Virus record (IMG/VR): IMGVR_UViG_2703718843_000007
Strand: one strand, 5' to 3'
DNA length: 19,983 bases
Source: a virus
Taxonomy: Duplodnaviria > Heunggongvirae > Uroviricota > Caudoviricetes
Shown: positions 1 through 17,298 of the stretch, one piece after another
How positions within the stretch are numbered: position 1 is the stretch's first letter
Layout of the letters: each line of letters starts with the position of its first letter
Program-made: the position numbers and the translations under genes
The notes under the pieces: model-generated
The model's database searches: none
Told to the model about the DNA's origin: nothing
Seen by the model: only the letters and a program-made list of their open reading frames with translations

Positions 1-291
1 TTACAACCACGCCCAGTATCTCGATAAGCGCAGAGAAATGATGCAGTGGTGGGCGGATTGGCTTGATGAAAAAGTGGAGTAATCCGGACCGTACTTCTTT
101 ATCCAGGCATAAAGGCTGTGGGTGGTGATATCGAGACGTGTTGCAACGCTGGCAACAGAATAACCGCGATCAACAACCTGTTTGACTGCTTCAGTTTTAA
201 ACTCTTCGGGATAACGCTTACCGCTCATGGGCACCTCTCTTTAAGCCATCTTAAATGACTCTGAGGTGTCTGTTAAACCCGTGGCGATTCA
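1..291 (-). mobile_element. IS3-family insertion sequence, left end plus OrfA N-terminal part (ORF runs off window start); terminal inverted repeat ends at 291
   Basis: Minus-strand ORF starting at ATG 232-234 gives MSGKRYPEEFKTEAVKQVVDRGYSVASVATRLDITTHSLYAWIKKYGPD, a helix-turn-helix OrfA typical of IS3-family elements. Upstream leader on the minus strand reads TGAATCGCCACGGG..., an IS3-type terminus beginning with TG. Family assignment from memory, not searched. Confidence 0.6.
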
Positions 292-744
292 AAACTGCGT
301 GTTACGTTCGCCCTGGACTGTTGCGATCGTGAAGCCATAGACTGGGCCGCAAGCACGGGAGGTTACGATAAAGCGACAGTGCAGGATGTCATGTTAGGAG
401 CGATAGAAAAACGCTTTGGCGATAAAGTACCGGAACAGTCCATCCAGTGGCTGACAGATAACGGTTCAGCGTATAGAGCGCATGAAACATGGCAGTTCGC
501 CAGAGAGTTGAATCTGGAGCCCTGCACAACGGCAATCAGCAGTCCTCAGAGTAATGGAATGGCAGAAAGGTTCGTGAAAACGATGAAGGAAGACTACATC
601 GCGTTCATGCCGAAACCGAATGTAAGAACGGCATTGCATAATCTTGCAGTGGCGATCGAACATTACAATGAAAACCATCCGCACAGTGCGTTGGGTTATC
701 GCTCTCCGCGAGAATATCGACGTCAGCGGGTAACGTTAACTTAA
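292..744 (+). pseudogene. DDE transposase (rve integrase-core) C-terminal fragment, 5' part removed by the adjacent IS insertion
   Basis: Frame open from 277; translation ...[37 protein letters not shown]...[20 protein letters not shown] ends in the characteristic rve C-terminal motif. No N-terminal domain or start codon; abuts the IS end at 291. Confidence 0.6.
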
Positions 745-785
745 GATACACCCCCTGTCTGGAAATAAGGGGGCAAGAACAATGA

Positions 786-1529
786 TCAGATTCCCTGGTG
801 AGTAAGAATTTTACTTTCTGAACTGCTCTGAGAGTATTGACTTGGAGAAACACCAAAATAACGTCTAAATACATAAGTAAAGTATGAGACACTGGCATAA
901 CCACAGACCTTAGCTACTTTACTAATAGGATAACAACGAGTGCTGAGTAAATATTCAGCCATTTGCATCCTCTCATCAAGTATGATCTTACTGAATGATA
1001 CCCCCTCTTCTTTCAATTTCCTCTTTAGTAAACTTTCGCTGAGATATAATCTTGATGATATATCCTTAAGACGCCATGGTGCAGATAAATCCGTATGAAT
1101 AATCGTTTTAACTTTAGCCCCTGTGCTTTTCAAACATTCAAACAGAAATACTCCAAATTGTTTTTCAGAAGAAAATGCAGAGAGACATGTAAAAGCAATA
1201 GACTCATCAAAAATTTCTATGTATTCAGCACAGTGATTAGCCCAACTAATTAATCCTTTAATTAAACTGAAGTCAGCAAAGTTTATTTTTAAATAAGATG
1301 GATATTCCCTACAATCAGAAATATCCCTTAAGTTATTAGCTTTCAAATAGCGACTAATAAACTCAGCGCCAAAATCCGCCACTATCACTCTTTCAGGATA
1401 TGTCAGGAAAAAATCTCTAGAGCTAGAGTCGACAAGTACAGATGAACCTCTCTCCAGAAACACACTCTCTTTTCCGAAATAAACATCAAAGGACTCCAAA
1501 ATCAATATAACTGAACATGTAGTTGCCAT
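786..1529 (-). CDS. AraC-family transcriptional regulator, AppY-like
   Basis: 247 aa from ATG at 1529 (ORF track starts at a GTG at 1538). C-terminal AraC helix-turn-helix WRLKDISSRLYLSESLLKRKLKEEGVSFSKIILDERMQMAEYLL...CGYASVSYFTYVFRRYFGVSPSQY; overall pattern resembles prophage-borne AppY as recalled. AT-rich gene. Confidence 0.75.
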   Translation of the reverse strand: MATTCSVILILESFDVYFGKESVFLERGSSVLVDSSSRDFFLTYPERVIVADFGAEFISRYLKANNLRDISDCREYPSYLKINFADFSLIKGLISWANHCAEYIEIFDESIAFTCLSAFSSEKQFGVFLFECLKSTGAKVKTIIHTDLSAPWRLKDISSRLYLSESLLKRKLKEEGVSFSKIILDERMQMAEYLLSTRCYPISKVAKVCGYASVSYFTYVFRRYFGVSPSQYSQSSSESKILTHQGI

Positions 1530-2113
1530 ATCATCCACCCAACTTAACTGAAACCAGGATGAAGTATATGCATATAAAGTTCACTTTGCCAAACTTCAGT
1601 ATAAAAAACCACATAAAAAATAGGGTGTGATAAAAAATACCGTAACAATAAAGCAAAGGATTATAAATTCCGTTACAGTTACAAATGATACTCAAGAAAC
1701 AATTCCTTAGGAAAAACTTATTTACAGCCAATAAGTAAGACACTTATATGATATCAAGTTTTCATAAAACATAACTAGGCTAAATAGCTGCGCCTAATAC
1801 CGCTACACTTTTGCCAGCCCATGTTTGCCTCCGGGTATTGACCCCTTCTCTACGCAACTTCAGTTCCCACCACCAACTTTGCGGCAGCTTTGTAGGATCA
1901 ATGTCTAAAAGAATAATGGTGACCGATAAGAAAACGACTGAATAACTGCAAATTTTCGCTCAAAACCTTCCTGTCAGATCCATAGCGAATCAAGTGCTGA
2001 ATGTCACAGTATCGAACAGAAAACAGTGACGATCTAACCCTTCAAGAATATTCTACGATTGTTCTGTTTAGGAAAAGCAAGGCGGGAAGTCGGGAGATAA
2101 GTCATTGATAAAG

Positions 2114-2175
2114 TGGCGGAGAGAGGGGGATTTGAACCCCCGGTAGAGTTGCCCCTACTCCGGTTTTCGAGACCG
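2114..2175 (-). other. 3' fragment (about 62 nt) of tRNA-Ser(CGA): anticodon stem-loop, long variable arm, T-arm, acceptor 3' strand and CCA; 5' half absent. Likely attachment-site remnant
   Basis: Reverse complement reads CGGTCTCGAAAACCGGAGTAGGGGCAACTCTACCGGGGGTTCAAATCCCCCTCTCTCCGCCA. Anticodon loop CUCGAAA, T-loop GGTTCAAATCC. Sequence 5' of it does not form a D-arm. Confidence 0.75.
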
Positions 2176-2667
2176 ATGATACAGAGTCGAAAAATCAAAG
2201 AGTTAAAAATTTTTCTTGGAATAAATGTCTTTAAATCGTACACGAAAAATCAATGAATTACATAACATTAAAGAAGAATATTCCAAGCCTTCTTGAGGCT
2301 ACCACCTGTTTTCAGGTGTCATTCAGACGTGATTTGCCCCAGATTGGGAAAGCACGCTTTTTTCTCAGCTATCGTCCTCTTATTTTGCCGTTACATTTCT
2401 TTTTGCACTCTAATGATTAATTTACAATAATAATATCGGTAATTATTGAGTAATAATAAATTGATTATTGCAAATGTAATTTAATTCCATCTTAGCGTTA
2501 TATTCCAATCTTTAATCTCCGCATGGAACAAGTTGCATGCGTGACTATATTAAGACAACTTATAACCACCAAAACATTTGCTTTGCAAGCAAAAACAGTG
2601 ACCATTGACTCTAAGAAAATTCCGATCTATTGTTAGGGTCATCAAAGTTACTTAACAGTATTCCGAA

Positions 2668-2769
2668 ATGAAAATACAAAGCAAGCTAATTGTCTTATTA
2701 AACATTATTATTGCATTTATATTATTTGAGCTTTTAGCTCAAAAATTTGGTTTGAGTACATTATTTTAA
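2668..2769 (+). CDS. Possible small hydrophobic peptide (33 aa, one predicted transmembrane helix); speculative
   Basis: ATG at 2668, translation MKIQSKLIVLLNIIIAFILFELLAQKFGLSTLF. No clear Shine-Dalgarno; AT-rich DNA produces such ORFs by chance. Confidence 0.15.
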   Translation: MKIQSKLIVLLNIIIAFILFELLAQKFGLSTLF

Positions 2770-2917
2770 AGCAAGGTAAACAATATCGGGCACTCTAGTT
2801 TTTATAATTAACAATTAAACGTCCATAAAATGTTATTTACTTTTCTTCGCTATTGTCACATCTTAATATAGTGGCTTACGCCACTCTACTTTCATCACAT
2901 TTTGTACGTTTATGTAC

Positions 2918-2956
2918 TCGCCATGAAGCTCTTTCATGGCGATTTTTATTCTTAAT
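2918..2956 (+). terminator. Intrinsic terminator-like hairpin in AT-rich ORF-poor DNA
   Basis: TCGCCATGAA-GCTCT-TTCATGGCGA (10-bp stem) followed by TTTTTATTCTT. Confidence 0.4.
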
Positions 2957-3033
2957 CCAAGAACATACTCCCTATCTATAGCAAAATCACTTTTTGAACA
3001 AAAGAATAACGTATTTAGGTAATCATTACGAAT

Positions 3034-3705
3034 TTACCCTATAGGTGCTACTGGCCATTCAATATCCTGTGCAGTTGACGTATCAACACGGTTCAGCAAT
3101 ACCCGATACTTTTTCCAGGCTTCCAGCAACAAGGTTTCTTCCTCCGTTGCGATTTCCAGATCCACAGCATCCTGAAGCGGCGCTATATGCTCACTGGCTA
3201 TCAGTTCATCCAGCGCGGCTGCTTTGTTCATGGCTTTGATGATATCCCGTTTCAGGAAATCAACATGTCGGTTTTCCAGTTCCGGAAAACGCCGCTGCAC
3301 CGACAGGGGGATCCCGTCGAGAATACTGGCAATTTCACCTGCGATCCGCGACAACACGAAAGTACAGAATGCGGTTTCCACCACTTCAGCGGAGTCTCTG
3401 GCATTCTTCAGTTCCTGTGCGTCGGCCTGCGCACGCGTAAGTCGATGGCGTTCGTACTCAATAGTCCCTGGCTGGAGATCTGCCTCGCTGGCCTGCCGCA
3501 GTTCTTCAACCTCCCGGCGCAGCTTTTCGTTCTCAATTTCAGCATCCCTTTCGGCATACCATTTTATGACGGCGGCAGAGTCATAAAGCACCTCATTACC
3601 CTTGCCACCGCCTCGCAGAACGGGCATTCCCTGTTCCTGCCAGTTCTGAATGGTACGGATACTCGCACCGAAAATGTCAGCCAGCTGCTTTTTGTTGACT
3701 TCCAT
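3034..3705 (-). CDS. nohD: Terminase small subunit Nu1 homolog; N-terminal ~167 aa lambda-Nu1-like, C-terminal ~56 aa divergent (reads into foreign DNA)
   Basis: [64 protein letters not shown]... matches lambda Nu1 as recalled through ...[12 protein letters not shown] at 3705 preceded by GGAATGAAC RBS. No terminase large subunit follows. Confidence 0.85.
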
Positions 3706-3882
3706 TGTTCATTCCACGGACAAAAACAGAGAAAGGAAACGACAGAGGCCAAAAAGCTCGCTTTCAGCACCTGTCGCTTCCTTTCTTTTCAGAGGGTATT
3801 TTAAATAAAAACATTAAGTTATGACGAAGAAGAACGGAAACGCCTTAAACCGGAAAATTTTCATAAATAGCGAAAACCCGCG

Positions 3883-3894
3883 AGGTCGCCGCCC
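3883..3894 (-). other. cosN cohesive-end sequence (GGGCGGCGACCT on minus strand), flanked by lambda left-end and right-end sequence; cos region spans roughly 3706..3950
   Basis: Reverse complement of 3871..3920 reads ...GGCGATCCGACAGGTTACG GGGCGGCGACCT CGCGGGTTTTCGCTATTTATGAAAATTTTCCGG..., the lambda cos junction as recalled. Confidence 0.85.
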
Positions 3895-4093
3895 CGTAAC
3901 CTGTCGGATCGCCGGAAAGGACCCGCAAAATGATAATAATTATCATCTACATGTCACAACGTGCATCTACGCCATCAAACCACGTCAAATAATCAATTAT
4001 GACGCAGGTATCGTATTAATTGATCTGCATCAACTTAACGTAAAAACAACTTCAGACAATACAAATCAGCGACACTGAATACGGGGCAACCTC

Positions 4094-4288
4094 ATGTCAA
4101 CGAAGAACAGAACCCGCAGAACAACAACCCGCAACATCCGCTTTCCTAACCAAATGATTGAACAAATTAACATCGCTCTTGAGCAAAAAGGGTCCGGGAA
4201 TTTCTCAGCCTGGGTCATTGAAGCCTGCCGTCGGAGACTAACGTCAGAAAAGAGAGCATATACATCAATTAAAAGTGATGAAGAATGA
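4094..4288 (+). CDS. ylcI: YlcI-like small protein (DUF3950)
   Basis: 64 aa MSTKNRTRRTTTRNIRFPNQMIEQINIALEQKGSGNFSAWVIEACRRRL...; same position as in the DLP12 and lambda right end. Confidence 0.8.
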   Translation: MSTKNRTRRTTTRNIRFPNQMIEQINIALEQKGSGNFSAWVIEACRRRLTSEKRAYTSIKSDEE

Positions 4289-4452
4289 ACATCCCGCGTT
4301 CTTCCCTCCGAACAGGACGATATTGTAAATTCACTTAATTACGAGGGCATTGCAGTAATTGAGTTGCAGTTTTACCACTTTCCTGACAGTGACAGACTGC
4401 GTGTTGGCTCTGTCACAGGCTAAATAGTTTGAATGATTAGCAGTTATGGTGA

Positions 4453-4659
4453 TCAGTCAACCACCAGGGAATAATCCTTCATATTATTATCGTGCTTCAC
4501 CAACGCTGCCTCAATTGCTCTGAATGCTTCCAGAGACACCTTATGTTCTATACATGCAATTACAACATCAGGGTAACTCATAGAAATGGTGCTATTAAGC
4601 ATATTTTTTACACGAATCAGATCCACGGAGGGATCATCAGCAGATTGTTCTTTATTCAT
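4453..4659 (-). CDS. ybcW: YbcW-like small protein
   Basis: 68 aa [68 protein letters not shown]; GGAGCG RBS before ATG at 4659. Confidence 0.8.
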
Positions 4660-4944
4660 TTTGTCGCTCCATGCGCTTGCTCTTCATCTAGCGGTTAAAA
4701 TATTACTTCAAATCTTTCTGTATGAAGATTTGAGCACGTTGGCCTTACATACATCTGTCGGTTGTATTTCCCTCCAGAATGCCAGCAGGACCGCACTTTG
4801 TTACGCAACCAATACTATTAAGTGAAAACATTCCTAATATTTGACATAAATCATCAACAAAACACAAAGAGGTCAGACCAGATTGAAACGATAAAAACGA
4901 TAATGCAAACTACGCGCCCTCGTATCACATGGAAGGTTTTACCA

Positions 4945-5355
4945 ATGGCTCAGGTTGCCATTTTTAAAGAAATATTCGATCAAGTGCGAAAAGATTTAAA
5001 CTGTGAATTGTTTTATTCTGAACTAAAACGTCACAACGTCTCACATTATATTTACTATCTAGCCACAGATAATATTCACATCGTGTTAGAAAACGATAAC
5101 ACCGTGTTAATAAAAGGACTTAAAAAGGTTGTAAATGTTAAATTCTCAAGAAACACGCATCTTATAGAAACGTCCTATGATAGGTTGAAATCAAGAGAAA
5201 TCACATTTCAGCAATACAGGGAAAATCTTGCTAAAGCAGGAGTTTTCCGATGGGTTACAAATATCCATGAACATAAAAGATATTACTATACCTTTGATAA
5301 TTCATTACTATTTACTGAGAGCATTCAGAACACTACACAAATCTTTCCACGCTAA
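4945..5355 (+). CDS. ybcV: YbcV-like protein (DUF1398)
   Basis: 136 aa from ATG 4945 ([47 protein letters not shown]...) with GGAAGG RBS. The ORF track's longer 4822 start is a GTG without RBS. Confidence 0.8.
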
Positions 5356-5645
5356 ATCATAACGTCCGGTTTCTTCCGTGTCAGCACCGGGGCGTTGGCA
5401 TAATGCAATACGTGTACGCGCTAAACCCTGTGTGCATCGTTTTTAATTATTCCCGGACACTCCCGCAGAGAAGTTCCCCGTCAGGGCTGTGGACATAGTT
5501 AATCCGGGAATACAATGACGATTCATCGCACCTGACATACATTAATAAATATTAACAATATGAAATTTCAACTCATTGTTTAGGGTTTGTTTAATTTTCT
5601 ACACATACGATTCTGCGAACTTCAAAAAGCATCGGGAATAACACC

Positions 5646-5939
5646 ATGAAAAAAATGCTACTCGCTACTGCGCTGGCCCTGCTTATTACAGGATGTGCTC
5701 AACAGACGTTTACTGTTCAAAACAAACCGGCAGCAGTAGCACCAAAGGAAACCATCACCCATCATTTCTTCGTTTCTGGAATTGGGCAGAAGAAAACTGT
5801 CGATGCAGCCAAAATTTGTGGCGGCGCAGAAAATGTTGTTAAAACAGAAACCCAGCAAACATTCGTAAATGGATTGCTCGGTTTTATTACTTTAGGCATT
5901 TATACTCCGCTGGAAGCGCGTGTGTATTGCTCACAATAA
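5646..5939 (+). CDS. borD: Bor outer-membrane lipoprotein (serum-resistance, lysogenic-conversion type)
   Basis: 97 aa MKKMLLATALALLITGCAQ... with lipobox LITGC; opposite in orientation to the lysis genes, as in lambda. Confidence 0.9.
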   Translation: MKKMLLATALALLITGCAQQTFTVQNKPAAVAPKETITHHFFVSGIGQKKTVDAAKICGGAENVVKTETQQTFVNGLLGFITLGIYTPLEARVYCSQ

Positions 5940-5970
5940 TTGCATGAGTTGCCCATCGATATGGGCAACT

Positions 5971-6432
5971 CTATCTGCACTGCTCATTAATATACTTCTG
6001 GGTTCCTTCCAGTTGTTTTTGCATAGTGATCAGCCTCTCTCTGAGGGTGAAATAATCCCGTTCAGCGGTGTCTGCCAGTCGGGGGGAGGCTGCATTATCC
6101 ACGCCGGAGGCGGTGGTGGCTTCACGCACTGACTGACAGACTGCTTTGATGTGCAACCGACGACGACCAGCGGCAACATCATCACGCAGAGCATCATTTT
6201 CAGCTTTCGCATCAGCTAACTCCTTCGTGTATTTTGCATCGAGCGCAGCAACATCACGCTGACGCATCTGCATGTCAGTAATTGCCGCGTTCGCCAGCTT
6301 CAGTTCTCTGGCATTTTTGTCGCGCTGGGCTTTGTAGGTAATGGCGTTATCACGGTAATGATTAACAGCCCATGACAGGTAGACGATGATGCAGATAACC
6401 AGAGCGGAGATAATCGCGGTTACTCTGTTCAT
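5971..6432 (-). CDS. rzpD: Rz inner-membrane spanin
   Basis: 153 aa [40 protein letters not shown]...; start ATG overlaps the endolysin stop (ATGA). Confidence 0.9.
6030..6212 (-). CDS. rzoD: Rz1 outer-membrane lipoprotein spanin, embedded in the +1 frame of Rz
   Basis: 60 aa [60 protein letters not shown]; lipobox VVGC and proline-rich region. Confidence 0.85.
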
Positions 6433-6926
6433 TGCTGACCCCACAAACAGATTTCACGCTCAATCTCACGACGAGTCATGAGACCTTTCCATTGCTTACC
6501 GCCAGCATATGTCCAGCGACGTAGCTGATCACATGCGCCTTTGATATCGCCCTGGTTTATTTTGCGAAGAAGCGTCGATGTTCTGAAATTGCCAGCACCC
6601 ACGTTGTAAACGAATGAGTAAAGAGCGCCGCGCGTTGTTTCCGGTATATCGACTTTGATGTACGGGTTAATTTGTCTGGCGACAGTGGCAAGGTCTTTAT
6701 TCAAGAGTGCTTTGCATTCTGCTTTGGTATACGTTTTACCGAGCATGATGTCTTTTCCGGTGTGTCCGTGACATACAGTCCATACGCCAACGATATCTTT
6801 GTATGGTACGTAGCTGACACCTTCCAGACCATCGTTACCACTTGGGCCAGTAATTAACACTGATGCTATAGCAATTGCTCCGCCACCAATAGCAGCAGCA
6901 ACGGCTTTTCGTAATGATGGAGGCAT
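6429..6926 (-). CDS. rrrD: SAR (signal-anchor-release) endolysin, phage 21 R type, T4-lysozyme fold
   Basis: 165 aa [30 protein letters not shown]... (Gly/Ala-rich N-terminal SAR domain) followed by lysozyme motifs; start overlaps the holin stop (TAATG). Confidence 0.9.
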
Positions 6927-7141
6927 TATTCACCTCTCGCAGCCTTGCGCTTATCTTCTTTAATCTTGAAATAAAGGTTTGTCAGGTACGTCAGCAGGCC
7001 AAATACCAGGCTACCCAGCACACCTATTGCTGCCCACTGTGAGGGCGTGACTTTATCGAGCAGCTGTAAAAACCAGTAACCGGCACTACCTGCTGAGGTG
7101 CCATAGGCGACACCCGTTGTTAACTTATCCATGGATTTCAT
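6926..7141 (-). CDS. essD: Class II holin, S21 (pinholin) type with dual-start motif
   Basis: 71 aa [71 protein letters not shown]; GAGGTG RBS. The ORF track's upstream extension is unlikely. Confidence 0.9.
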
Positions 7142-7267
7142 AACCCCACCTCGCAGACAAAGCGGGTGTAAATTGAGGGAATACAACGTATCGCAAAAAA
7201 GCAGAAACGTAACAGACTCGGAGTCAGTGAATAACTCAGGTATTGGGTTATCAGCTAATATCGAGAC

Positions 7268-7302
7268 TCAAAAAATGGAAAAACCCGCTCGACGGCGGGT
7301 TT
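7268..7302 (-). terminator. Intrinsic terminator on the late (minus) strand upstream of the lysis cassette; tR'-like
   Basis: Minus-strand RNA reads AAACCCGCC-GUCGA-GCGGGUUU followed by UUCCAUUUUUU. Confidence 0.5.
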
Positions 7303-7728
7303 AAGCTGTGTGACGAAGTAACCACTCTTAACAGCATAACCAATTTTTTACGTACGTAAACCACTAAATGATATTTGCGAGAATGCTACCGAGTATTGAA
7401 AACACCACTACAAATACATAAGCAAATCTCAACAAATAACCAACAAATAATTTCCAGCGTTATTTTTAGCTGGTTTAAATTGAATCTTCAAATTATAGAG
7501 CACTTATAAATAACAGCCATTAATATAAATTGGCTAATAGATTTATTTTTATTCAGCCAAGAGCCATGAATAGGATTCGATAGAAAAAGTTCAGATAAAA
7601 ATAGAGATCTACTTCACAAATCAAATGAGAAACCAAAACTTACATCTTGAAATAATCACATTGATTAGATGAATATTTATCGCGCAGTGACATCATTTTT
7701 TAATAATAGTTCAAAAAAAGGGCTCACG

Positions 7729-8811
7729 ATGAAAAAATTAACAGTGGCAATTTCTGCTGTAGCTGCATCAGTACTGATGGCGATGTCTGCTCAGGCAGCT
7801 GAAATTTATAATAAAGACAGTAACAAGCTGGATCTGTACGGGAAAGTTAATGCTAAGCACTACTTCTCCTCTAATGATGCAGATGATGGTGATACTACTT
7901 ATGCCCGTCTTGGCTTCAAAGGTGAAACCCAAATCAACGATCAACTGACTGGTTTCGGTCAGTGGGAATATGAATTCAAAGGCAACCGCGCTGAATCTCA
8001 AGGTTCCTCCAAAGATAAAACCCGTCTTGCCTTCGCTGGCCTGAAATTCGGTGACTACGGCTCCATCGATTATGGCCGTAACTACGGTGTAGCATACGAT
8101 ATTGGTGCATGGACCGACGTTCTGCCAGAATTCGGTGGCGATACCTGGACCCAAACAGATGTATTCATGACTGGTCGCACCACAGGTGTTGCAACTTATC
8201 GTAACAATGACTTCTTTGGTCTGGTTGATGGTCTGAACTTTGCTGCTCAGTATCAGGGTAAAAATGACCGCACTGACGTAACTGAAGCTAATGGTGATGG
8301 TTTCGGTTTCTCCACTACTTATGAGTATGAAGGATTCGGTGTAGGTGCAACCTATGCTAAATCTGACCGCACTAATAATCAGGTTATCTACGGTAACAAC
8401 AGCCTGAATGCATCTGGTCAAAATGCTGAAGTATGGGCAGCTGGTCTGAAATATGATGCGAACAACATCTATCTGGCTACCACCTATTCTGAAACCCAGA
8501 ACATGACTGTTTTTGGTAATAACCATATTGCCAACAAAGCACAAAACTTCGAAGTAGTTGCACAATATCAGTTCGACTTCGGTCTGCGTCCGTCCGTTGC
8601 TTACCTGCAATCTAAAGGAAAAGACTTGGGTGCGTGGGGTGATCAGGACCTGGTTGAATATATTGATGTAGGTGCAACCTATTACTTCAACAAAAATATG
8701 TCCACTTTTGTTGATTACAAAATCAACCTGATTGATAAGAGCGATTTCACGAAAGCATCTGGCGTTGCTACCGATGATATCGTTGCTGTAGGTATGGTTT
8801 ACCAGTTCTAA
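7729..8811 (+). CDS. nmpC: General porin of the OmpC/OmpF family, NmpC/Lc type (prophage-encoded)
   Basis: 360 aa precursor [23 protein letters not shown]|[17 protein letters not shown]... ending ...VAVGMVYQF. Intact; oriented opposite to Q and the lysis genes. Confidence 0.9.
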
Positions 8812-8947
8812 TTTGATTACTAAAAGATATGTTGCGGGAGGCTTTGCCTCCCCAACATATAAGTGGCTCCCTCAAGCCACTTCCTTTAGGAGCACAACCT
8901 TGCTTCTAACTATATAAACCTTCTGTTATATATTACCCTTTATTTTT

Positions 8948-8976
8948 GGGGGCGTCTCAACGCCCCATTTTTAATA
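8948..8976 (+). terminator. Intrinsic terminator for the porin transcript
   Basis: GGGGCGT-CTCA-ACGCCCC followed by ATTTTTAATAATTTTT; located between the convergent porin and Q genes. Confidence 0.6.
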
Positions 8977-8999
8977 ATTTTTAGTAAACAATTGGCATA

Positions 9000-9383
9000 T
9001 TAATTAGAGTTATTAACAACGATATCCATCTCTAACCGGATATCTAATGCCATTAACATCCCTTCAATTATACCCTCAGCCTTCTGTAACCTTTTCCCGA
9101 TATAACCATCAGAGCAGCAATGCTTACCTGCCAGTGACATGAATGTCATACCGACTACATAATAATCTACTAATAAATCGTGCAAATCGCTGTTGTTCTT
9201 TTTCAGACGGGCCATGCACCCGCAAATGATCATCGCGTCATCGTCACAACATTGCGGGCGAGATTTTACTTTTGAAGTAATTAATCCCTTAAAACCGGCG
9301 GCAATGGACGACCAGGTCACATCTTCATGATTATTAGCCGCCCACGCTCCCCAACGCTCAAGAACCATCTGAATATCACGCAT
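9000..9383 (-). CDS. quuD: Late-gene antiterminator Q (phage 21/82-like)
   Basis: 127 aa from ATG 9383 ([34 protein letters not shown]...[16 protein letters not shown]...). The ORF track offers a start 15 nt upstream at 9398. Confidence 0.9.
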
Positions 9384-9468
9384 CAACTTACTCCACAAAA
9401 ATCAGACCAGAACGCCAATTACAAGCAAAAATCAATAAAACAGTATTAGTTGATTGTTATCTCTGACT

Positions 9469-9591
9469 TCATACTCCTGCTCCTGTCAGGGTTTTGGCGT
9501 AATTCCTCAGTATTCGGTAATCGGTCAAAACAGAACTGGGGAAACGATATAAGCGCAGGCGCATCCAGCGGTGGCGAAGAAGTTCTGCCAT
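9469..9591 (-). CDS. ylcG: YlcG-like small protein
   Basis: 40 aa MAELLRHRWMRLRLYRFPSSVLTDYRILRNYAKTLTGAGV; not in ORF track (too short), translated by hand between Q and rusA. Confidence 0.65.
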   Translation of the reverse strand: MAELLRHRWMRLRLYRFPSSVLTDYRILRNYAKTLTGAGV

Positions 9592-9605
9592 ATTAAACTC
9601 AAACA

Positions 9606-9968
9606 TCATTCATTCCCCATTTCGGTGATGGTCAGTTCCAGCCTCCCACCTTTGGTAACAGGCATCTTCACAACGCGGTAATCAACGACCTGAGCATCAT
9701 CCAGCCAGAAACCTGCTTTGGTGAGTGCGTCAAAAGCGGCTTTTTGCAGATTATCCAGGTCACGGCGACGGCGATCCGGCATGTGGCACTCAATACGGAT
9801 TTTCACTGGCATAGCCAGGCCGATATCCAGCATTGCGTTTTTAATGATTCGGGTGACGTTATCGCGGTATGCCTGCCCTTCTGCGCTGATGTGTGTGCGC
9901 CCGCGATTATGGCGGTAATAGCGATTATTGCTCGGAGGCCAGGGTAATGTGATGCTGTAGGTATTCAC
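9606..9968 (-). CDS. rusA: RusA Holliday-junction resolvase
   Basis: 120 aa [38 protein letters not shown]... Confidence 0.95.
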
Positions 9969-10255
9969 GCCTTAATAACCCCCTCTTTCAGCCAGATAAC
10001 CTGTGTTCTCGCCATACCTTCCAGCGCGCATTCTTTTGCATATGCAGCATCGACAAAATGTGTGCGGCGGTCGATTTCGTCGTGGCAGGCAGAACATGCA
10101 ATGGTGGCAATCAGGTCTGGCGGTTTCGTACCGGTGCCGCACAATCCAGTCAGCCGGATATGTGCCAGTACAGACGTTTCAGGGTTGCCATTACATACGC
10201 CAGGGATTCTTACCTGGCATTCCCGACCACGCGCTGCTTTTCTCAAATCAGCCAT
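9965..10255 (-). CDS. ybcO: YbcO-like protein (DUF1364, predicted nuclease)
   Basis: 96 aa from ATG 10255 ([34 protein letters not shown]...[11 protein letters not shown]...). The ORF track start at 10294 is an upstream extension. Confidence 0.85.
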
Positions 10256-10418
10256 GACTCCTCCTTGCTGCCAGTCGCAACCATTTTTTATCAACCAGGC
10301 TGGCGGTATATCCGAGCAGTGTTGGTATTTCGGAAGGCTTCAGCTCCGGTTTACGCTTACGACGATTTGGTACTCTGTAGATGTGTCCGTTCATGACACG
10401 AATAAGCGGTGTAGCCAT
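10248..10418 (-). CDS. ninE: NinE-like small protein
   Basis: 56 aa [56 protein letters not shown], translated by hand; start overlaps ybcN stop (TAATG), stop overlaps ybcO start. Confidence 0.75.
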   Translation of the reverse strand: MATPLIRVMNGHIYRVPNRRKRKPELKPSEIPTLLGYTASLVDKKWLRLAARRSHG

Positions 10419-10873
10419 TACGCCTCCTGTTTGTCGCGGAGCTGCTGGAACTCGCAGCTCTGCGGAATAGTCAGGTGGCAGCCAATATTCACCGCCCAGG
10501 CTTCAACCTTACACAGGAAGATATACATCTCTCCGGTATCAAGATCGGAGGTATGGCGTAACGACTGGATAGTAGTGATTTCGCCGGTTACGACATCAAC
10601 CAGGTCCTTGGTTTCATAACCGAGGTATGTGTGTTTGAGAGCATCTTTTACCCATGCTGCGGTAGCGAACGATTTCCCCCTGCTGATGAGGTATTCACTG
10701 ATTTCGCTGTACCACATGTGGCTGAGTGCATTCTGGGAAAGACTGCGTTTCTCACGCCACGGTTTAAGCACCATGCGAAAGCATTTTCCGTCCTCCAGAT
10801 AAGGCTGGATCTGCTGGCCGATAGCGGTGAAGTTACCGCGATGCAGTTTGATGCCATCTTGTGGTAGGTTCAC
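10418..10873 (-). CDS. ybcN: YbcN-like protein (DUF1367)
   Basis: 151 aa; GTG start at 10873 preceded by GGAGG; [50 protein letters not shown]... Confidence 0.85.
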
Positions 10874-11063
10874 GCTTCACCTCCGCAGAGGTCAGACGCT
10901 GGATGCAAAAAATCGCAGGTGCATTTCTGCATCTGTGAAGGGAGAAGAGAGTTTGGATTGTATGTGCGCATAAACGTCCCCGTTTAGCGCAGAAGTCACC
11001 GGAGTTGTTCAAGCTCCGATGACTTTATTATTACGAATTGATTTTACAAAATCAAAAGGTATG

Positions 11064-11516
11064 TTAGTGACGCGGGTCTGTTATTATGCGAGAAGGGGTT
11101 CCGTATAAAACAAGGACCTTACTTCCTTGAGTAAATAACGGATCTTTGCCTTGAACAATGGTCATTAAATTCCCATTCTCAGTTTCGACAACATATTCCA
11201 TGCCTGTTTGTTTTGTTGCTGAAGATTCGATTGCTGCCCCGGCAATACCACCAATGACTGCACCACCAACGGCACCAACGATATTAGAACGAACTCCCCC
11301 ACCAAGCGCAGAACCAGCGGTTGCCCCCACGGCAGCCCCAGCAGTCCCGCCTAACGCGGAAGTCCCACTGATATCAACCCCCCTAGCACTAATAACTGTA
11401 CCAGCGATAGTTCGATTAACCATGCCCACAGAGCCAACAGAATAACTATTTGGCGATATATTTTGTGCGCATCCAACCAACACTAAGAGTGGAGCAATTA
11501 CGAATAATCGCTTCAT
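11064..11516 (-). CDS. Lipoprotein with glycine-zipper segment (SlyB/Pcp/17-kDa-antigen-like architecture), function unknown
   Basis: 150 aa MKRLFVIAPLLVLVGCAQ... (lipobox LVGC), Gly/Ala-rich zipper GGTAGAAVGATAGSALGGGVRSNIVGAVGGAVIGGIAGAAI, then C-terminal beta-rich segment. Start overlaps the stop of the upstream lipoprotein gene (ATGA). Confidence 0.8.
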   Translation of the reverse strand: MKRLFVIAPLLVLVGCAQNISPNSYSVGSVGMVNRTIAGTVISARGVDISGTSALGGTAGAAVGATAGSALGGGVRSNIVGAVGGAVIGGIAGAAIESSATKQTGMEYVVETENGNLMTIVQGKDPLFTQGSKVLVLYGTPSRIITDPRH

Positions 11517-12073
11517 TTAGCTACCCTAACAGGAAACATTGGACGAGAAAGATCAACACTTTCTAATGCTTGCAAGAACTGCGTTATGTTGTTTTGCACC
11601 GCGCGATTAACAGATTCGCGTGCTCGAACAATACCGTAGAATGCGTAACTGGCTGGAACAGTACCGGTAGACTCAATATCCTGCGTATATATAATATCAC
11701 CATTCGCACGGTTGATTATTTCATACCTTGCAATTGCTTTAGTTGTCATTGAAACACCAAAAGCAGGAACGTCAAGAGCCAACACTTTAACATTTAAGCT
11801 AACCGTATTTGGTGAACTATCACGAAAAATAGTCATTCGGTCGAGTGCTTCCTGCAAAGATTCACGCCAAATTGGAGTTATAGCCTCCATACCAGCAGTG
11901 ATATCCCCTTTCTGCTCATCTGGACGAGCAAGTGATACCGTTAATGACTTAATTTCAGCATCTATTTTTTTCTGGCTAACTCCCACGTTAGGTGTTGAAA
12001 AATTCAATGGTGGCACACTAGCGCAACCTGTTAAAGAACCAATAATCATGGCTAATAATATTATCTTCTTCAT
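11513..12073 (-). CDS. Lipoprotein, function unknown; first gene of a two-gene lipoprotein operon
   Basis: 186 aa MKKIILLAMIIGSLTGCAS... (lipobox LTGC); AAGGT RBS 8 nt upstream of ATG 12073. AT-richer than the flanking phage genes. No family recognised by eye. Confidence 0.8.
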   Translation of the reverse strand: MKKIILLAMIIGSLTGCASVPPLNFSTPNVGVSQKKIDAEIKSLTVSLARPDEQKGDITAGMEAITPIWRESLQEALDRMTIFRDSSPNTVSLNVKVLALDVPAFGVSMTTKAIARYEIINRANGDIIYTQDIESTGTVPASYAFYGIVRARESVNRAVQNNITQFLQALESVDLSRPMFPVRVAK

Positions 12074-12329
12074 AAATTTACCTTATTGTTATAACCAAAG
12101 GAATTATAAAGTAAAAAAGTTCACTATCACTAGCCATTAACGACATCAATTTCAGAGAAACATGGTACTCATTTCCACAAATTTGACACAAGTCATTTTC
12201 ACCTACATATTCCATCATACTTGATGCATATGTTATTGAAGCCTCTATCCTATCCGTTCATAATAGCAATAGTTACCCGGGTGATAGTACCTCTATGATT
12301 ACTCGTCTTTCTGATTGATTGGATTAAAT

Positions 12330-12521
12330 ATGCGCGCCAAAATTTATCAACTTTCGTTATGGATATTTATTTCGTTTCTAGCGATCTATGCCTTTATTAT
12401 CTATAAAGGTTCTTATATTGGAGTAGCATTGCATCAAATTGCTTGGATCATCATTATTGCCTCTGGCTTGATTGCTAGGCTAACTAAACCAAAGCAAAAA
12501 CCAATTTCGTCCAATAATTAG
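12330..12521 (+). CDS. Small predicted two-helix membrane protein, divergent from the lipoprotein operon; hypothetical
   Basis: 63 aa from ATG 12330: MRAKIYQLSLWIFISFLAIYAFIIYKGSYIGVALHQIAWIIIIASGLIARLTKPKQKPISSNN. Two hydrophobic stretches, basic C-terminus; weak RBS. The ORF track starts at a TTG at 12315. Confidence 0.4.
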   Translation: MRAKIYQLSLWIFISFLAIYAFIIYKGSYIGVALHQIAWIIIIASGLIARLTKPKQKPISSNN

Positions 12522-12680
12522 ACATGTATTAAAAAAATGATATTTTTATGTACATAGTCTATTGAAAATTGCCGCGATAAAATGCCAACACCCGCTTCAT
12601 CGCGGCACTCTGGCGACACTCCTTGAAAATCAGATTCGTGCTCACCTTTCCTTCCCGTTCTTCCCTGGTAGCGAACCGGT

Positions 12681-13127
12681 AATCATCCGATCTGCGTTAC
12701 CGAGTGGATGGATGAATGCCGCCGCGAACCATTCAAAACCCGCGAAGGCAGAGAAATTACGGGGCCGTGGCAGTCGCATCCCAAACGGATGTTACGGCAT
12801 AAAGCCATGATTCAGTGTGCCCGTCTGGCCTTCGGATTTGCTGGTATCTATGACAAGGATGAAGCCGAGCGCATTGTCGAAAATACCGCATACACCGCAG
12901 AACGTCAGCCGGAACGCGACATTACTCCGGTTAACGATGAAACCATGCAGGAGATTAACACTCTGCTGATTGCCCTGGACAAAACATGGGATGACGACTT
13001 ATTGCCGCTCTGTTCCCAGATATTTCGCCGCGACATTCGCGCATCGTCAGAACTGACACAGGCCGAAGCAGTGAAAGCTCTTGGATTCCTGAAACAGAAA
13101 GCCACTGAGCAGAAGGTGGCAGCATGA
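12681..13127 (+). pseudogene. bet: bet (Red-beta single-strand annealing protein), C-terminal ~149 codons only; N-terminal ~110 codons replaced by unrelated DNA
   Basis: In-frame translation from ~12681 reads NHPICVTEWMDECRREPFKTREGREITGPWQSHPKRMLRHKAMIQCARLAFGFAGIYDK...[17 protein letters not shown], matching lambda Bet C-terminus as recalled. Upstream in-frame stop at 12669-12671; stop overlaps exo start (ATGA). Confidence 0.85.
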
Positions 13128-13804
13128 CACCGGACATTATCCTGCAGCGTACCGGGATCGACGTGAGAGCTGTCGAACAGGGGGATGATGCATGGCACAA
13201 ATTACGGCTCGGCGTCATCACCGCTTCAGAAGTTCACAACGTGATAGCCAAGCCCCGCTCAGGAAAGAAGTGGCCTGACATGAAAATGTCCTACTTCCAC
13301 ACCCTGCTGGCTGAGGTTTGCACCGGTGTGGCTCCGGAAGTTAATGCTAAGGCGCTGGCATGGGGAAAACAGTACGAGAACGACGCCAGAACCCTGTTTG
13401 AATTCACTTCCGGCGTGAATGTTACTGAATCCCCGATCATCTATCGCGACGAAAGTATGCGCACCGCCTGCTCTCCCGATGGTTTATGCAGTGACGGCAA
13501 TGGCCTTGAGCTGAAATGCCCGTTTACCTCCCGGGATTTCATGAAGTTCCGGCTCGGTGGTTTCGAGGCCATAAAGTCGGCTTACATGGCCCAGGTGCAG
13601 TACAGCATGTGGGTGACACGAAAAGATGCCTGGTACTTTGCCAACTATGACCCGCGTATGAAGCGTGAAGGACTGCATTATGTCGTGGTTGAGCGGGATG
13701 AAAAGTACATGGCGAGTTTTGACGAGATGGTGCCGGTGTTCATCGAAAAAATGGACGAGGCACTGGCTGAAATTGGTTTTGTATTTGGGGAGCAATGGCG
13801 ATGA
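13124..13804 (+). CDS. exo: Lambda exonuclease (Red-alpha)
   Basis: 226 aa [68 protein letters not shown]...GFVFGEQWR; near-identical to lambda Exo as recalled. Confidence 0.95.
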
Positions 13805-13983
13805 CGCATCCTCACGATAATATCCGGGTAGGCGCAATCACTTTCGTCTACTCCGTTACAAAGCGAGGCTGGGTATTTCCCGGCCTTTCTGTTATCCGAA
13901 ATCCACTGAAAGCACAGCGGCTGGCTGAGGAGATAAATAATAAACGAGGGGCTGTATGCACAAAGCATCTCCTGTTGAGTTAA
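13801..13983 (+). CDS. Lambda orf60a-like hypothetical protein
   Basis: 60 aa from ATG 13801 (ATGA overlap with exo stop): [60 protein letters not shown]. Confidence 0.7.
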
Positions 13984-14147
13984 GAACGAGTATCGAGATG
14001 GCACATAGCCTTGCTCAAATTGGAATCAGGTTTGTGCCAATACCAGTAGAAACAGACGAAGAATTTCATACGTTAGCCACATCCCTTTCACAAAAACTGG
14101 AAATGATGGTGGCGAAAGCAGAAGCAGATGAGAGAGACCAGGTATGA
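13956..14147 (+). CDS. Lambda orf63-like hypothetical protein
   Basis: 63 aa [63 protein letters not shown]. Confidence 0.7.
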   Translation: MHKASPVELRTSIEMAHSLAQIGIRFVPIPVETDEEFHTLATSLSQKLEMMVAKAEADERDQV

Positions 14148-14157
14148 CAACCACTGA

Positions 14158-14439
14158 ATGCATTTTTCTGGCAGCGGGCTTCATATTCTGTGTGCTTATG
14201 CTTGCCGACATGGGGCTTGTTCAGTGACACCTCAGCAGGAAAACGCCCTTCGCAGCATTGCCCGTCAGGCTAATTCTGAAATCAAAAAAGCCAGACAGCA
14301 GTTTCCGGATAAAAACGTCGATGACATTTGCCGTAGCGTACTGAAGAAGCACCGCGAAACGGTAACGCTGATGGGATTCACACCGACTCATTTAAGTCTA
14401 GCAATCGGCATGTTAAACGGCGTTTTTAAGGAACGGTGA
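14158..14439 (+). CDS. Hypothetical protein in the lambda orf61 position; start uncertain
   Basis: 93-codon ORF from ATG 14158 ending ...TLMGFTPTHLSLAIGMLNGVFKER. Length does not fit a 61-aa product, so start or frame relative to lambda is unclear. Confidence 0.4.
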   Translation: MHFSGSGLHILCAYACRHGACSVTPQQENALRSIARQANSEIKKARQQFPDKNVDDICRSVLKKHRETVTLMGFTPTHLSLAIGMLNGVFKER

Positions 14440-14537
14440 ACATGAAAAGCAAAATCATCAGGGAGCTACAGGCTCCTTTTTTATTATTCGCATTCACCCT
14501 CAAGCGTATTAACCAACAATTCAGGGATTAATGAAAG

Positions 14538-14759
14538 ATGGCAGACATCATTGATTCAGCATCAGAAATTGAAGAATTACAGCGCAACACAGCAATAAAA
14601 ATGCGCCGCCTGAACCACCAGGCTATATCTGCCACTCATTGTTGTGAGTGTGGCGATCCGATAGATGAACGAAGACGCCTGGCCGTTCAGGGTTGTCGGA
14701 CTTGTGCAAGTTGCCAGGAGGATCTGGAACTTATCAGTAAACAGAGAGGTTCGAAGTGA
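14538..14759 (+). CDS. TraR/DksA-family C4 zinc-finger protein (lambda orf73 type)
   Basis: 73 aa MADIIDSASEIEELQRNTAIKMRRLNHQAISATHCCECGDPIDERRRLAVQGCRTCASCQEDLELISKQRGSK with CxxC...CxxC motif. Confidence 0.8.
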   Translation: MADIIDSASEIEELQRNTAIKMRRLNHQAISATHCCECGDPIDERRRLAVQGCRTCASCQEDLELISKQRGSK

Positions 14760-15178
14760 GCGTAATTCACTCTCAGGCACTGCGTGAAGCGGCAGAGCAG
14801 GCAATGCATGACAACTGGGGATTTGACGCGGACCTTTTCCATGAGCTGGTAACACCATCGATTGTGCTGACACTGCTGGATGAACGGGAAAGAAACCAGC
14901 AGTACATCAAACGCCGCGACCAGGAGAACGAGGATATTGCGCTAACGGTGAGGAAACTGCGTGTTGAGCTGGAGACAGCAAAAATCAAAACTCAACGAGC
15001 AGCGTGAGTAGAAGGTGTTATCTCGGATGGAAGTAAGCGTATTGCTGAACTGGAGGCCTGGGTTGAATACACAAGAGCTGCATACGTAAGAGCAAAAGAC
15101 AAGGGAGATTTGATCAGAGTTATTACCCGACAACCAACGGGATTTTACGCTTACGTACCATGTAATTAGGAATCCTTG
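14756..15178 (+). pseudogene. ea22: ea22-like gene interrupted by an in-frame TGA (15005-15007) and truncated at its 3' end by an AT-rich insertion
   Basis: GTG start overlapping orf73 stop; 83 codons MSVIHSQALREAAEQAMHDNWGFDADLFHELVTPSIVLTLLDERERNQQYIKRRDQENEDIALTVRKLRVELETAKIKTQRAA, then TGA, then 56 more sense codons in the same frame (VEGVISDGSKRIAELEAWVEYTRAAYVRAKDKGDLIRV...) to a stop at 15176-15178. Confidence 0.6.
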
Positions 15179-15305
15179 AAGTGGCAGCCTAACTGCGGAT
15201 ACACTGAAATGGCGATTTGGTAACATGTTTCGCACAAGGCTGTTACTACGCTTAAAGATAATCAGCCATGATTAAACGCTTTGTAAAAAGTAAAAGGAAA
15301 TTACA

Positions 15306-15920
15306 ATGAAAAAATCAATACTAATTTTAGGGCTTACGTTAATTGTCTCATCTCAAATACCATCGGCAATGGCAAAAAATGAATCAAGACTTTGGGTTGT
15401 TGTTGATCGAACGGAAAGACATACCTGCCCTTCAAGTAAATGTGGAGTGGCTGGGAAACTATTTTTCAGGGAAGGCGTAGATTTTCTAGAAAAAAAAGGT
15501 GAATGGGTTCGTATAACTGAGCCATATTCAGCCTCATGTGTGGGAGGGGAAAGCGAATATATTAAAGAAGGTAATAAATCCTGCACAAGAAAAAACGGAA
15601 TCGTCAATGGCAAGTTTTCAGAATGGGTTAAACTTAGTGATCTTAGCAGTGAAAGGCCATCAGATCCTGCTGAAAATGCGAGCGGAGATGATACTTTAAT
15701 CAAAGGATCTGATGACTACCGTATATACAAAAAAGAGTTTTCTTCGGCAGCTAGGAAGTTAATAAACGAAGGGGTCTGCACGGAAAGCGACTTTAAGGAA
15801 ATCGGAGGGTGGATGGCATCAAGCAATAAGGGTAAAAACATCTATTTCACATATTGCGGAGGAATGACGTTGTCGAACAGAATATACCTAGACGTTAAAA
15901 GTGGAAAGACTTTTAGATAA
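15306..15920 (+). CDS. Secreted/periplasmic cysteine-containing protein of unknown function (moron inserted into the ea22 region)
   Basis: 204 aa; AAGGA RBS 7 nt upstream; Sec-type signal peptide MKKSILILGLTLIVSSQIPSAMA with AxA cleavage motif; 6 Cys in mature part; AT-rich; followed by a terminator. Confidence 0.8.
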   Translation: MKKSILILGLTLIVSSQIPSAMAKNESRLWVVVDRTERHTCPSSKCGVAGKLFFREGVDFLEKKGEWVRITEPYSASCVGGESEYIKEGNKSCTRKNGIVNGKFSEWVKLSDLSSERPSDPAENASGDDTLIKGSDDYRIYKKEFSSAARKLINEGVCTESDFKEIGGWMASSNKGKNIYFTYCGGMTLSNRIYLDVKSGKTFR

Positions 15921-15989
15921 TATGATATTACCAATGACAGTATTAATTTAATGCCTCCATAGAATTATCTCTAGGAAGTATGTATAAGA

Positions 15990-16027
15990 AAAGCCCGCAC
16001 AATGAGCTGCTGCGGGCTTTGTGTTAT
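15990..16027 (+). terminator. Intrinsic terminator after the secreted-protein moron
   Basis: AGCCCGCA-(11-nt loop)-TGCGGGCT followed by TTTGTGTTATT. Confidence 0.55.
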
Positions 16028-16213
16028 TCGCCATATTTTATGAAGCAAATACGACACTATAGATAATTAAGCGTTGCTGGTTGTCGATTCCTCACTCACT
16101 CCTGTTGATGGCTCTCTTCTTGTATGTGCCATTGAAGGGTAATATCGAGTAAAAAGATACCGGAAGTATCCGCGCCGCCATGATTGTCTTTCTCCTAATG
16201 CAGGAAAAGCAGA

Positions 16214-16552
16214 ATGGCTAAATCATCAGCAGAGCGCAAAGTCGATCAGAGAGCCAAGCAAGCATCATCCGGTATGCGTAAGCTGGAGCTTGTACTTGAT
16301 GCTCAGGAAATTGAAATGCTGGATCGTAACTGAGCCACGCGCCGCTTCAGGCATGCGCCTTACGAGTTTGGTGAGTACATCGCGTTACTGAGCCGCCAGG
16401 ATGATGCACGTGTGCGCTGGCGTATAAAATCGATCAGCAGAAAACGTTGCGGTAAGTGCGGCGAGAGAGTTCCTGTTAATTCATGCCCGTGTAATGGTGA
16501 CTCACAATGCTGGGTGACCAAAGGCTGGCACGAAACAAAATTAATGATATAA
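16214..16552 (+). pseudogene. ea8.5-like zinc-ribbon ORF interrupted by a single in-frame TGA (16331-16333)
   Basis: One frame: MAKSSAERKVDQRAKQASSGMRKLELVLDAQEIEMLDRN - TGA - ATRRFRHAPYEFGEYIALLSRQDDARVRWRIKSISRKRCGKCGERVPVNSCPCNGDSQCWVTKGWHETKLMI. The 72 sense codons after the TGA contain no ATG start. Assignment to ea8.5 is by position and cysteine pattern only. Confidence 0.5.
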
Positions 16553-16570: not shown

Positions 16571-16580
16571 GGAGGCGGCA

Positions 16581-17009: not shown

Positions 17010-17051
17010 TTCTTAGCATCAGCAACTACTGCCTTTGGTGGAAATTATATC

Positions 17052-17080: not shown

Positions 17081-17091
17081 GGAGATGATAA

Positions 17092-17274: not shown

Positions 17275-17298
17275 GCGTGTAATTGCGGAGACTTTGCG

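Follow-up and report, generated by a model that had tools for sequence, protein, structure and literature searches.

The orphan tRNA-Ser fragment located at positions 2114-2175 of the 19,983-nucleotide stretch of DNA analysed here (IMG/VR record IMGVR_UViG_2703718843_000007, hereafter the window) is best explained as the core of a fossil attR of a serU-specific phage, captured into the b region of a lambda-type phage, a reading to which we assign a probability of about 0.85. The structure adds a further example to a known class, that of att junctions which have become fossilised within the b region of another phage, and the 62-nt pseudo-tRNA itself has already been annotated at the native serU locus (KU052038). 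In the window the fragment is inert, with neither a tRNA product nor a cognate integrase.

The sequence TGGCGGAGAGAGGGGGATTTGAACCCCCGGTAGAGTTGCCCCTACTCCGGTTTTCGAGACCG, which is the plus strand of window 2114-2175, matches in reverse complement the 3′ 62 nt of serU, the 90-nt gene for tRNA-Ser(CGA) in E. coli K-12, at 62 of 62 positions, placing the fragment on the minus strand. It comprises the 5′ strand of the anticodon stem, the anticodon CGA, the long variable arm, the T arm, the 3′ strand of the acceptor stem and the CCA end. Only nucleotides 29-90 of serU are found in the window, the 5′ 28 nt (acceptor 5′ strand and D arm) being missing. Alignment, which had been proposed in an earlier note on this DNA as a check of where identity to serU stops, located that boundary at 2175/2176; from 2176 onwards, unrelated and AT-rich phage DNA stands in place of the 5′ part of the tRNA. 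The window contains a single copy of a 30-nt piece of the fragment, the number expected by chance being 0.00. A second check proposed in the same note, the search for a full tRNA, was run with ARAGORN and with Rfam at its gathering threshold, neither of which called a tRNA anywhere in the window, and a permissive Rfam scan of 1950-2350 contained no match to the tRNA family. What that scan did return was a minus-strand match of 18 nt to the tmRNA model and, on the plus strand, a match to a plastid 3′-UTR family. No intrinsic terminator was detected near the tRNA end in a scan of 1400-3100; the two terminator-like sites recorded in that interval, at 2725-2743 and 2918-2942, are both on the plus strand. 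The earlier note had reported, within 2106-2180 and with the strand unstated, 62 nt of the 3′ part of a tRNA-Ser that include CCA and lack the 5′ half, and the serU match bears out this description, the interval containing the true coordinates.

The fragment is the central element of a segment, 1836-2370, which has the full anatomy of an attR, comprising P arm, core and B′ host flank. The core is the identity block of a serU-type att site in its host-type form, extending over the 3′ part of the target tRNA to the end of the gene. On one side it is contiguous with 278 bp of the chromosomal yodB-serU intergenic spacer (1836-2113), which was identified by its match to native loci and constitutes the B′ host flank directly downstream of serU; flank and fragment are arranged exactly as at the native serU locus. 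The resulting 340 bp of host DNA (1836-2175) display 97.4% identity to K-12, with values of up to 99.1% for other strains (97-99% for the 278-bp flank), and the native arrangement of the yodB-serU spacer is observed in 5423 of 5426 complete E. coli genomes. On the other side lies arm A (2176-2370), the conserved P arm of a serU-type attP, which is common to the unrelated serU prophages E2863 and CT30 at the native locus, the match extending over 195 bp in E2863 and through tfa in CT30. Two copies of the 8-mer ATTCCAAG, the only ones in the window, are both located within arm A, at 2215-2222 (minus strand) and 2280-2287 (plus strand), and three copies are present in the P′ arm of CT30 beside int. 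Judged from this one 8-mer motif, the copies in arm A are consistent with putative arm-type Int sites. The rest of the phage b-region DNA, from arm A to tfa (2371-3033), also matches CT30, and other lambdoid prophages commonly have part of it downstream of their tfa genes.

The configuration of the donor is represented by CT30, whose prophage is integrated at native serU and displays, at its right end, 98.1% identity to window 1836-3200. The genes there run from zinT through spacer, orphan fragment, the same arm and tfa to xis, int, intact serU and mtfA at the far end, the integrase next to intact serU being of the tyrosine family; this is the textbook arrangement of a phage that has entered the 3′ part of a tRNA gene. 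In E2863 the order is yodB, spacer, fragment and arm A, and then nleC and tail fibres. E2863 and O157 contain other serU prophages with the same orphan fragment, and in KU052038 (‘phage SerU-LTIIb’) the same 62-nt sequence is annotated as a pseudo-tRNA beside yodB. Phages that target tRNA genes usually supply their own copy of the tRNA 3′ part, rebuilding the gene at attL. In agreement with this, the rebuilt serU at the attL of CT30 contains two compensatory G/C substitutions in the variable arm, which were donated by the phage, and the corresponding bases are A/T, the host type, in the window fragment, in CT30 attR and in K-12 serU. Since the window fragment is host-type in the variable arm, it is the displaced 3′ end of the host gene and not a copy of attP. 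This finding, together with the 278 bp of attached spacer, contradicts the earlier view of the fragment as a partial tRNA carried by an integrative element.

What the window lacks for an active att pair is a cognate integrase with a partner attL at the other end of the same element. The earlier note had suggested searching the genome for the partner att copy and a nearby integrase, and within the window neither a partner copy nor a serU-type integrase is present; the only integrase is lambda-type and the fragment is single-copy, and the junction is therefore a relic and not the boundary of the resident prophage. Nor do its surroundings correspond to those of an attP copy, which would have element DNA on both sides, an adjacent integrase and the variant bases of the element itself; here one side is host spacer, no serU-type int is present in the window and the bases are host-type.

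The window as a whole is a DLP12-like cryptic lambdoid prophage located between ybhB and ybhC, the latter occupying 18700-19983. The lambda att core (attL), an exact GCTTTTTTATACTAA, lies beside ybhC at 18639-18653 on the minus strand, and positions 18635-19983 are 99.9% identical to the K-12 attB-ybhC region. The single integrase, a lambda-type protein of 356 residues encoded at 17495-18565 on the plus strand, contains the Pfam Phage_integrase and lambda Arm-DNA-bind_1 domains, and window 17044-18653 displays 97.9% DNA identity to the int-xis-P′ region of lambda. The other lambda junction (attR, by ybhB) is located just left of base 1 in genomes that match the window at 100%, such as FDAARGOS_1248, and consists of the B′ flank after ybhB, a core with 14 of 15 positions and ~218 bp with 86% identity to the lambda P arm. 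Because lambda att sites flank the prophage, the interval from base 1 to 18653, tRNA fragment included, lies inside a lambda-att-bounded prophage; the location at the lambda site had been recognised in the earlier note and is confirmed by ybhC, the exact core and the lambda-type int. A candidate for a second lambda att in the window, a core-like site at 1596-1610 on the minus strand (13 of 15 positions) with a P′-like extension of ~10 nt, was set aside as probably fortuitous or too decayed, and neither blastn nor Smith-Waterman alignment revealed P-arm or B′ homology at this site. The best of the promoter-like matches found upstream of the AraC gene described below overlaps this core-like site.

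At its left end the host spacer is joined, at 1835/1836 (a joint termed J1), to a 56-bp terminal stub of an IS630-family element (1780-1835), which displays up to 98% identity to the ends of IS copies. The inverted repeat of the stub starts at 1780, where IS homology also begins with a chimeric probe, and the terminal inverted repeat of the IS630-family element was mapped on L012. The stub is broken internally, at 1835, exactly where the spacer starts; J1 is therefore an illegitimate deletion joint and not the product of transposition. The stub adjoins the upstream region of a gene for an AraC/XylS-family regulator (786-1538, minus strand; Pfam HTH_AraC and HTH_18). In O157:H7, the prophage adjacent to thrW has an AraC gene region that shares 99.3% identity with window 308-2176, and OI-8 encodes the AraC-type acid-resistance activator PatE, or z0321 (PMC10877973). 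From the correspondence of loci and this review, the regulator in the window is probably the PatE orthologue. Between the AraC gene and the lambda P arm, positions 1-744 hold two IS remnants recognised with Pfam, both of which are partial in RefSeq, namely a transposase HTH fragment (1-234, minus strand; HTH_Tnp_1) and an rve integrase-core fragment (292-744, plus strand; rve/rve_3). KFu022 and MN06021, considered as AraC contexts that lack the host flank, proved to be copies of the same module into which IS5 and IS1 had inserted secondarily. K-12 DLP12 was likewise rejected as the source of the left end, window 1-3053 having no DNA similarity to the K-12 appY/tfaX region.

On the right, the tail-fibre gene ends in an in-frame Nu1::Tfa fusion ORF (3034-3705, minus strand), in which Pfam assigns residues 1-164 to Phage_Nu1 and residues 170-221 to Caudo_TAP, with a deletion joint at 3199/3200. 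Comparison with phage ev099 defines this joint, as window 1-3200 corresponds to ev099 26738-23538 and window 3199-3851 to ev099 686-34. The ~22.85 kb lost relative to ev099, with an overlap of 2 bp only, cover everything between the end of Nu1 and the last third of tfa; at this joint some close relatives, among them FDAARGOS_1248, have 2676 bp more than the window. A second gap relative to ev099, at 32204-39379, leaves the window without gam, kil, N, cI, cro, cII, O and P, and the two genomes are otherwise collinear.

The module is not confined to cryptic prophages. Window 700-3100 displays 99.0-99.3% identity to three complete lambdoid phages, PhiR70_1, mEp332 and ev099, in all of which it is positioned between tfa and attP-int, and mEp332 has been propagated and quantified on E. 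coli K-12. In ev099 the same module lies in the b region, with all morphogenesis genes in between. Since complete phages hold the module between tfa and attP-int and keep all morphogenesis genes, the Nu1/tfa joint at 3199/3200 is an internal deletion in one phage genome and does not unite two elements. That these three phages carry the module also means that the serU junction was captured in a phage lineage, before the resident prophage existed, so that the chimera arose in that lineage and not in the chromosome of the window. Phages ev099, mEp332 and PhiR70_1 present one of the features of a specialised-transduction (imprecise-excision) scar, having host DNA by att in a packaged phage genome and an illegitimate end, which is the internal IS630 break at J1. 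As regards a second such feature, a reciprocal loss of int-proximal donor DNA at the joint, the int of the donor is absent from the module, but the partner of the spacer at J1 is the IS/moron cassette, followed by lambda attP-int.

Among 5426 complete E. coli genomes, 524 (~10%) cover at least 80% of window 1600-2260, which comprises J1, spacer and fragment, and 1178 cover at least 80% of window 2090-2200, the interval of the orphan fragment junction. An exact 38-mer across J1 was found in 30 viral contigs of IMG/VR and had no match in the 185,579 species-representative genomes of GTDB. At least three different arms are attached to this one joint, diverging at or within ~5 nt of the tRNA boundary: arm A in 8 of the 30 contigs, arm B1 (of O157 type, with a GIY-YIG gene, pinE and genes for tail fibres further along) in 6, and arm B2, in which identity to the tRNA is ~4-5 nt longer, in 15, the remaining contig being disrupted by an insertion. 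J1 is also present, in an arm-B layout, in O157 TT12B and in strain 120899, where another integrase-bearing island adjoins the AraC side. As J1 is a one-off event found with several arms, the arms were exchanged at the fragment after capture. Two routes fit this exchange, the action of a serU-type integrase on attR and homologous recombination in the 340-bp patch against a native serU attR. SNPs at 1951 and 1962 within the patch follow arm class, a pattern that fits plain lineage divergence as well and does not discriminate between the exchange routes.

The possibility that the relic is a working site, that is a portable attR or docking site at which serU-type integrases swap b-region and tail-fibre arms or rearrange chromosomes, is raised by this combination of a single illegitimate J1 with at least three arms, and by the retention of the arm-type motifs and the B′ flank. 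We consider it doubtful, although it is the strongest of the alternatives, because homologous recombination in the patch explains the same pattern, the co-variation of patch SNPs with arm class is uninformative, and some copies of the module carry T-loop mutations, as expected of a decaying relic. That the fragment is a functional or misread complete tRNA gene has a negligible probability; no base is changed in the T arm, the variable arm or the anticodon loop, but ARAGORN and Rfam are silent, and the complete cloverleaf that a functional tRNA-Ser gene must have is precluded by the replacement of the acceptor 5′ strand and D arm, nucleotides 29-90 of serU being all that is left.

The two remaining alternatives place the assembly in the bacterial chromosome. 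According to the earlier note, the fragment would be an attP or att-end copy of a second element specific for tRNA-Ser, which probably supplied the left ~3 kb before a deletion fused it to the Nu1/cos region. Partial tRNA 3′ ends do mark the ends of integrative elements, a ~78-nt tRNA-Ser-like stretch that matches the fragment occurs in some phages of Klebsiella, Citrobacter and E. coli, and the basic proposal of an att relic from a tRNA-Ser-specific element is upheld by the serU match and the attR anatomy. The invoked deletion is also real, in that it joins a tail-fibre end to Nu1 at 3199/3200; it is, however, internal to one phage genome, as the comparison with ev099 established, and complete phages with all their morphogenesis genes hold the same module. 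The extent of the proposed contribution is not supported, the serU-derived DNA being limited to 1836-3200 (~1.37 kb, of which 340 bp are host DNA), whereas 1-1835 is a separate PatE-like AraC/IS cassette. Core chromosomal spacer rather than element DNA on one side, a variable arm with the bases of the host and not those of the phage, and the absence from the window of both a second integrase and a partner copy make this origin improbable. Even less likely is a rearrangement within the strain, in which a serU prophage and an att-lambda prophage would have recombined, by inversion or translocation, to bring the attR end next to ybhB before further deletions. Recombination does occur between lambdoid prophages of one genome, which have long homologies in common (PMC2669165), and serU and att-lambda prophages share tail-fibre modules. 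Such an event is difficult to reconcile with host DNA that measures 278 bp only and stops at an IS630 stub, beyond which lie the AraC gene and the lambda P arm, or with the identical structure in free phage genomes and at other chromosomal sites, for example next to thrW in O157. Matching genomes, moreover, keep a normal native serU locus elsewhere, with at least two places of match per record.

Capture of a serU attR by a lambda-type phage, the reading preferred here, can be laid out as a series of events, whose order and recombination route we infer from the arrangement of the segments. A lambdoid phage with a serU-specific tyrosine integrase would have integrated into serU, its own tRNA 3′ copy rebuilding the gene at attL and the 62-nt host 3′ end being displaced to the far side, where it would come to lie between the P arm, by tfa, and the spacer toward yodB. 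The next step would be an encounter between this serU prophage and a second phage, in which tfa, an IS630 element, the AraC moron and att-int were present. A single homologous exchange within the tail-fibre region, combined with one illegitimate joint between the spacer and the IS630 element, could have transferred tfa, the P arm, the 62-nt tRNA end and 278 bp of spacer as a unit into the dispensable b region. An imprecise excision of the lambda-bio kind, followed by exchange of the int/att module, is an equally possible route of capture. The resulting lineage, represented by ev099, mEp332 and PhiR70_1, uses the Int and att of lambda, and one copy would have lysogenised att-lambda and subsequently lost ~22.85 kb of morphogenesis genes, giving rise to Nu1::Tfa, as well as the immunity and replication region, to become the cryptic prophage. 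Intermediates of capture were not found, either as a phage with a longer host segment or as an AraC upstream region with intact IS630, the chimeric probe for the latter being covered at 80% or more in 0 of 5426 genomes.

The junction shares features with several known systems. Serine-tRNA prophages of EHEC and EPEC integrated at serU, and ‘phage SerU-LTIIb’ (KU052038), present the same 62-nt sequence, host flank and P arm in the same orientation to tfa and tail genes. In contrast with these, the window junction is inside lambda att sites, retains 278 bp of host flank only and has neither cognate int nor attL. In lambda-bio-type transducing phages, imprecise excision gives a phage with attR and adjacent host DNA; as in the window, P arm, core, B′ and host DNA with an illegitimate end are located in the b/att region. 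The host segment in the window is, in comparison, tiny and non-coding, and its joint lies in an IS630 stub by a moron instead of in the early genes. The carrier also uses another integrase and att, those of lambda, which requires at least one further module exchange. The cryptic prophages of E. coli K-12 contain att pseudo-tRNAs, namely pauD in DLP12, ptwF in CP4-6 and pawZ in CPZ-55. These are likewise partial tRNA 3′ ends at prophage boundaries, and the gene content of the window is DLP12-like, but the window fragment differs from them in being internal to the prophage and derived from a different, earlier integration site. A final parallel concerns the neighbouring gene and not the tRNA fragment, as AraC moron cassettes at the tail-fibre/att end of lambdoid prophages (AppY in DLP12; PatE, PsrA and PsrB in O157) also present an AraC gene between tfa and att, surrounded by IS debris (PMC10057817, PMC10877973).

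These observations leave the current understanding of phage integration and evolution unchanged. They are of practical relevance to prophage annotation, as boundary predictors that use tRNA-fragment repeats could misplace prophage ends or infer a false serU element at this locus. The 340-bp host patch provides homology between distant prophages and the serU locus. If the relic did act as a portable docking site on phages with lambda int, thrW int and other lambdoid phages, this would explain the occurrence of one J1 with at least three arms, and serU-type integrases may then swap arms between co-resident phages, or recombine the relic with the attL of a serU prophage, rearranging the chromosome. 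In ~10% of complete E. coli genomes the module adjoins the gene for a PatE-like regulator of acid resistance and virulence, and J1 is a convenient lineage marker for this PatE-like cassette. The feature is a datable scar of lambdoid phage mosaicism, through which a sliver of host DNA is now carried by viable lambda-type phages.

The AraC/XylS-family regulator gene (786-1538, minus strand) is probably an orthologue of PatE, an acid-resistance activator and LEE repressor, since in O157:H7 the prophage region next to thrW displays 99.3% DNA identity to the stretch that holds it (308-2176). Every AraC context examined either carries the joint of the IS630-family stub with the serU spacer (1835/1836) together with the serU relic, or shows that relic with an IS inserted later, and in none of the 5426 complete genomes searched does an intact IS630-family element adjoin the AraC upstream region. 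A core-like site (1586-1610, minus strand) precedes the start codon of the AraC gene by approximately 50 nt; it matches the lambda att core at 13 of 15 positions, has a P'-like AAGTTTGGCA extension and is oriented like the true attL core of the prophage. The best sigma-70-like promoter match, TTGGCA-18-TATACT (1592-1563), overlaps it. A search for arm homology around the site revealed none, and it could be due to chance or be an older, very decayed att relic. In two genomes with the alternative phage arm B, a further island, opened by a tyrosine integrase, directly adjoins the AraC/IS side of the module: in O157 TT12B (locus L006, 6243-7424) this is a P4-like satellite with psu/sid/ogr genes, and in strain 120899 (locus L016, 1817-2986) an island with a SIR2 gene. 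These integrase-led islands suggest tandem insertions at one att site.

Alignment with the complete lambdoid phage ev099 reveals two internal deletions in the window. One, of ~22.85 kb, generated an in-frame Nu1::Tfa fusion ORF (3034-3705, minus strand; joint 3199/3200), in which Nu1, the terminase small subunit, provides residues 1-164 and a tail-fibre assembly protein then contributes its C-terminal third. This joint differs from the nohD-aaaD-tfaD arrangement of K-12 DLP12. The only Rfam match at gathering level, to the "IS009" sRNA family (129 bits; 3074-3262, minus strand), falls in coding DNA across the fusion joint and is aligned with high confidence for the tfa-derived part only (model positions ~76-199); the family itself may be nothing more than conserved coding DNA of tfa. 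The other deletion, at ~12584-12692, brings ren-proximal DNA next to the bet/exo region and corresponds to ev099 32204-39379, comprising gam, kil, N, cI, cro, cII, O and P, leaving the prophage with neither immunity nor replication module. Between Q and the lysis genes, an intact porin gene of 380 residues (7669-8811, plus strand), annotated as ompC/nmpC/ompD-like, contrasts with the IS5-interrupted nmpC of K-12 DLP12.

The rebuilt serU at attL of strain CT30 (L048 31492-31581), when compared with the window fragment (2114-2175), displays two compensatory substitutions in the phage-donated 3' half, which preserve a variable-arm base pair by replacing A-U with G-C; a lysogen thus expresses tRNA-Ser(CGA) in a slightly different form. 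In IMG/VR contigs with the alternative arm B2 (L022, L026, L027, L029, L030, L033, L036 and L039) the T-loop of the fragment has CC rather than AA (GATTTGCC... versus GATTTGAA...), and the length of the C-run varies among other copies. Such variants fit a relic on which no tRNA constraint acts, or else sequencing errors in homopolymer runs.

A stretch of ~78 nt with 91-95% identity to window 2098-2176 was also identified in unrelated temperate phages (records H176-H181), namely Citrobacter phage Chris1, Klebsiella phages KpF5, P7641 and ST101-KPC2phi6.3, and E. coli phages 606R7 and 689R5. These stretches presumably serve the phages as attP sites of their own, directed at tRNA-Ser(CGA), in which case serU would be widely used as an attachment site across the Enterobacteriaceae.
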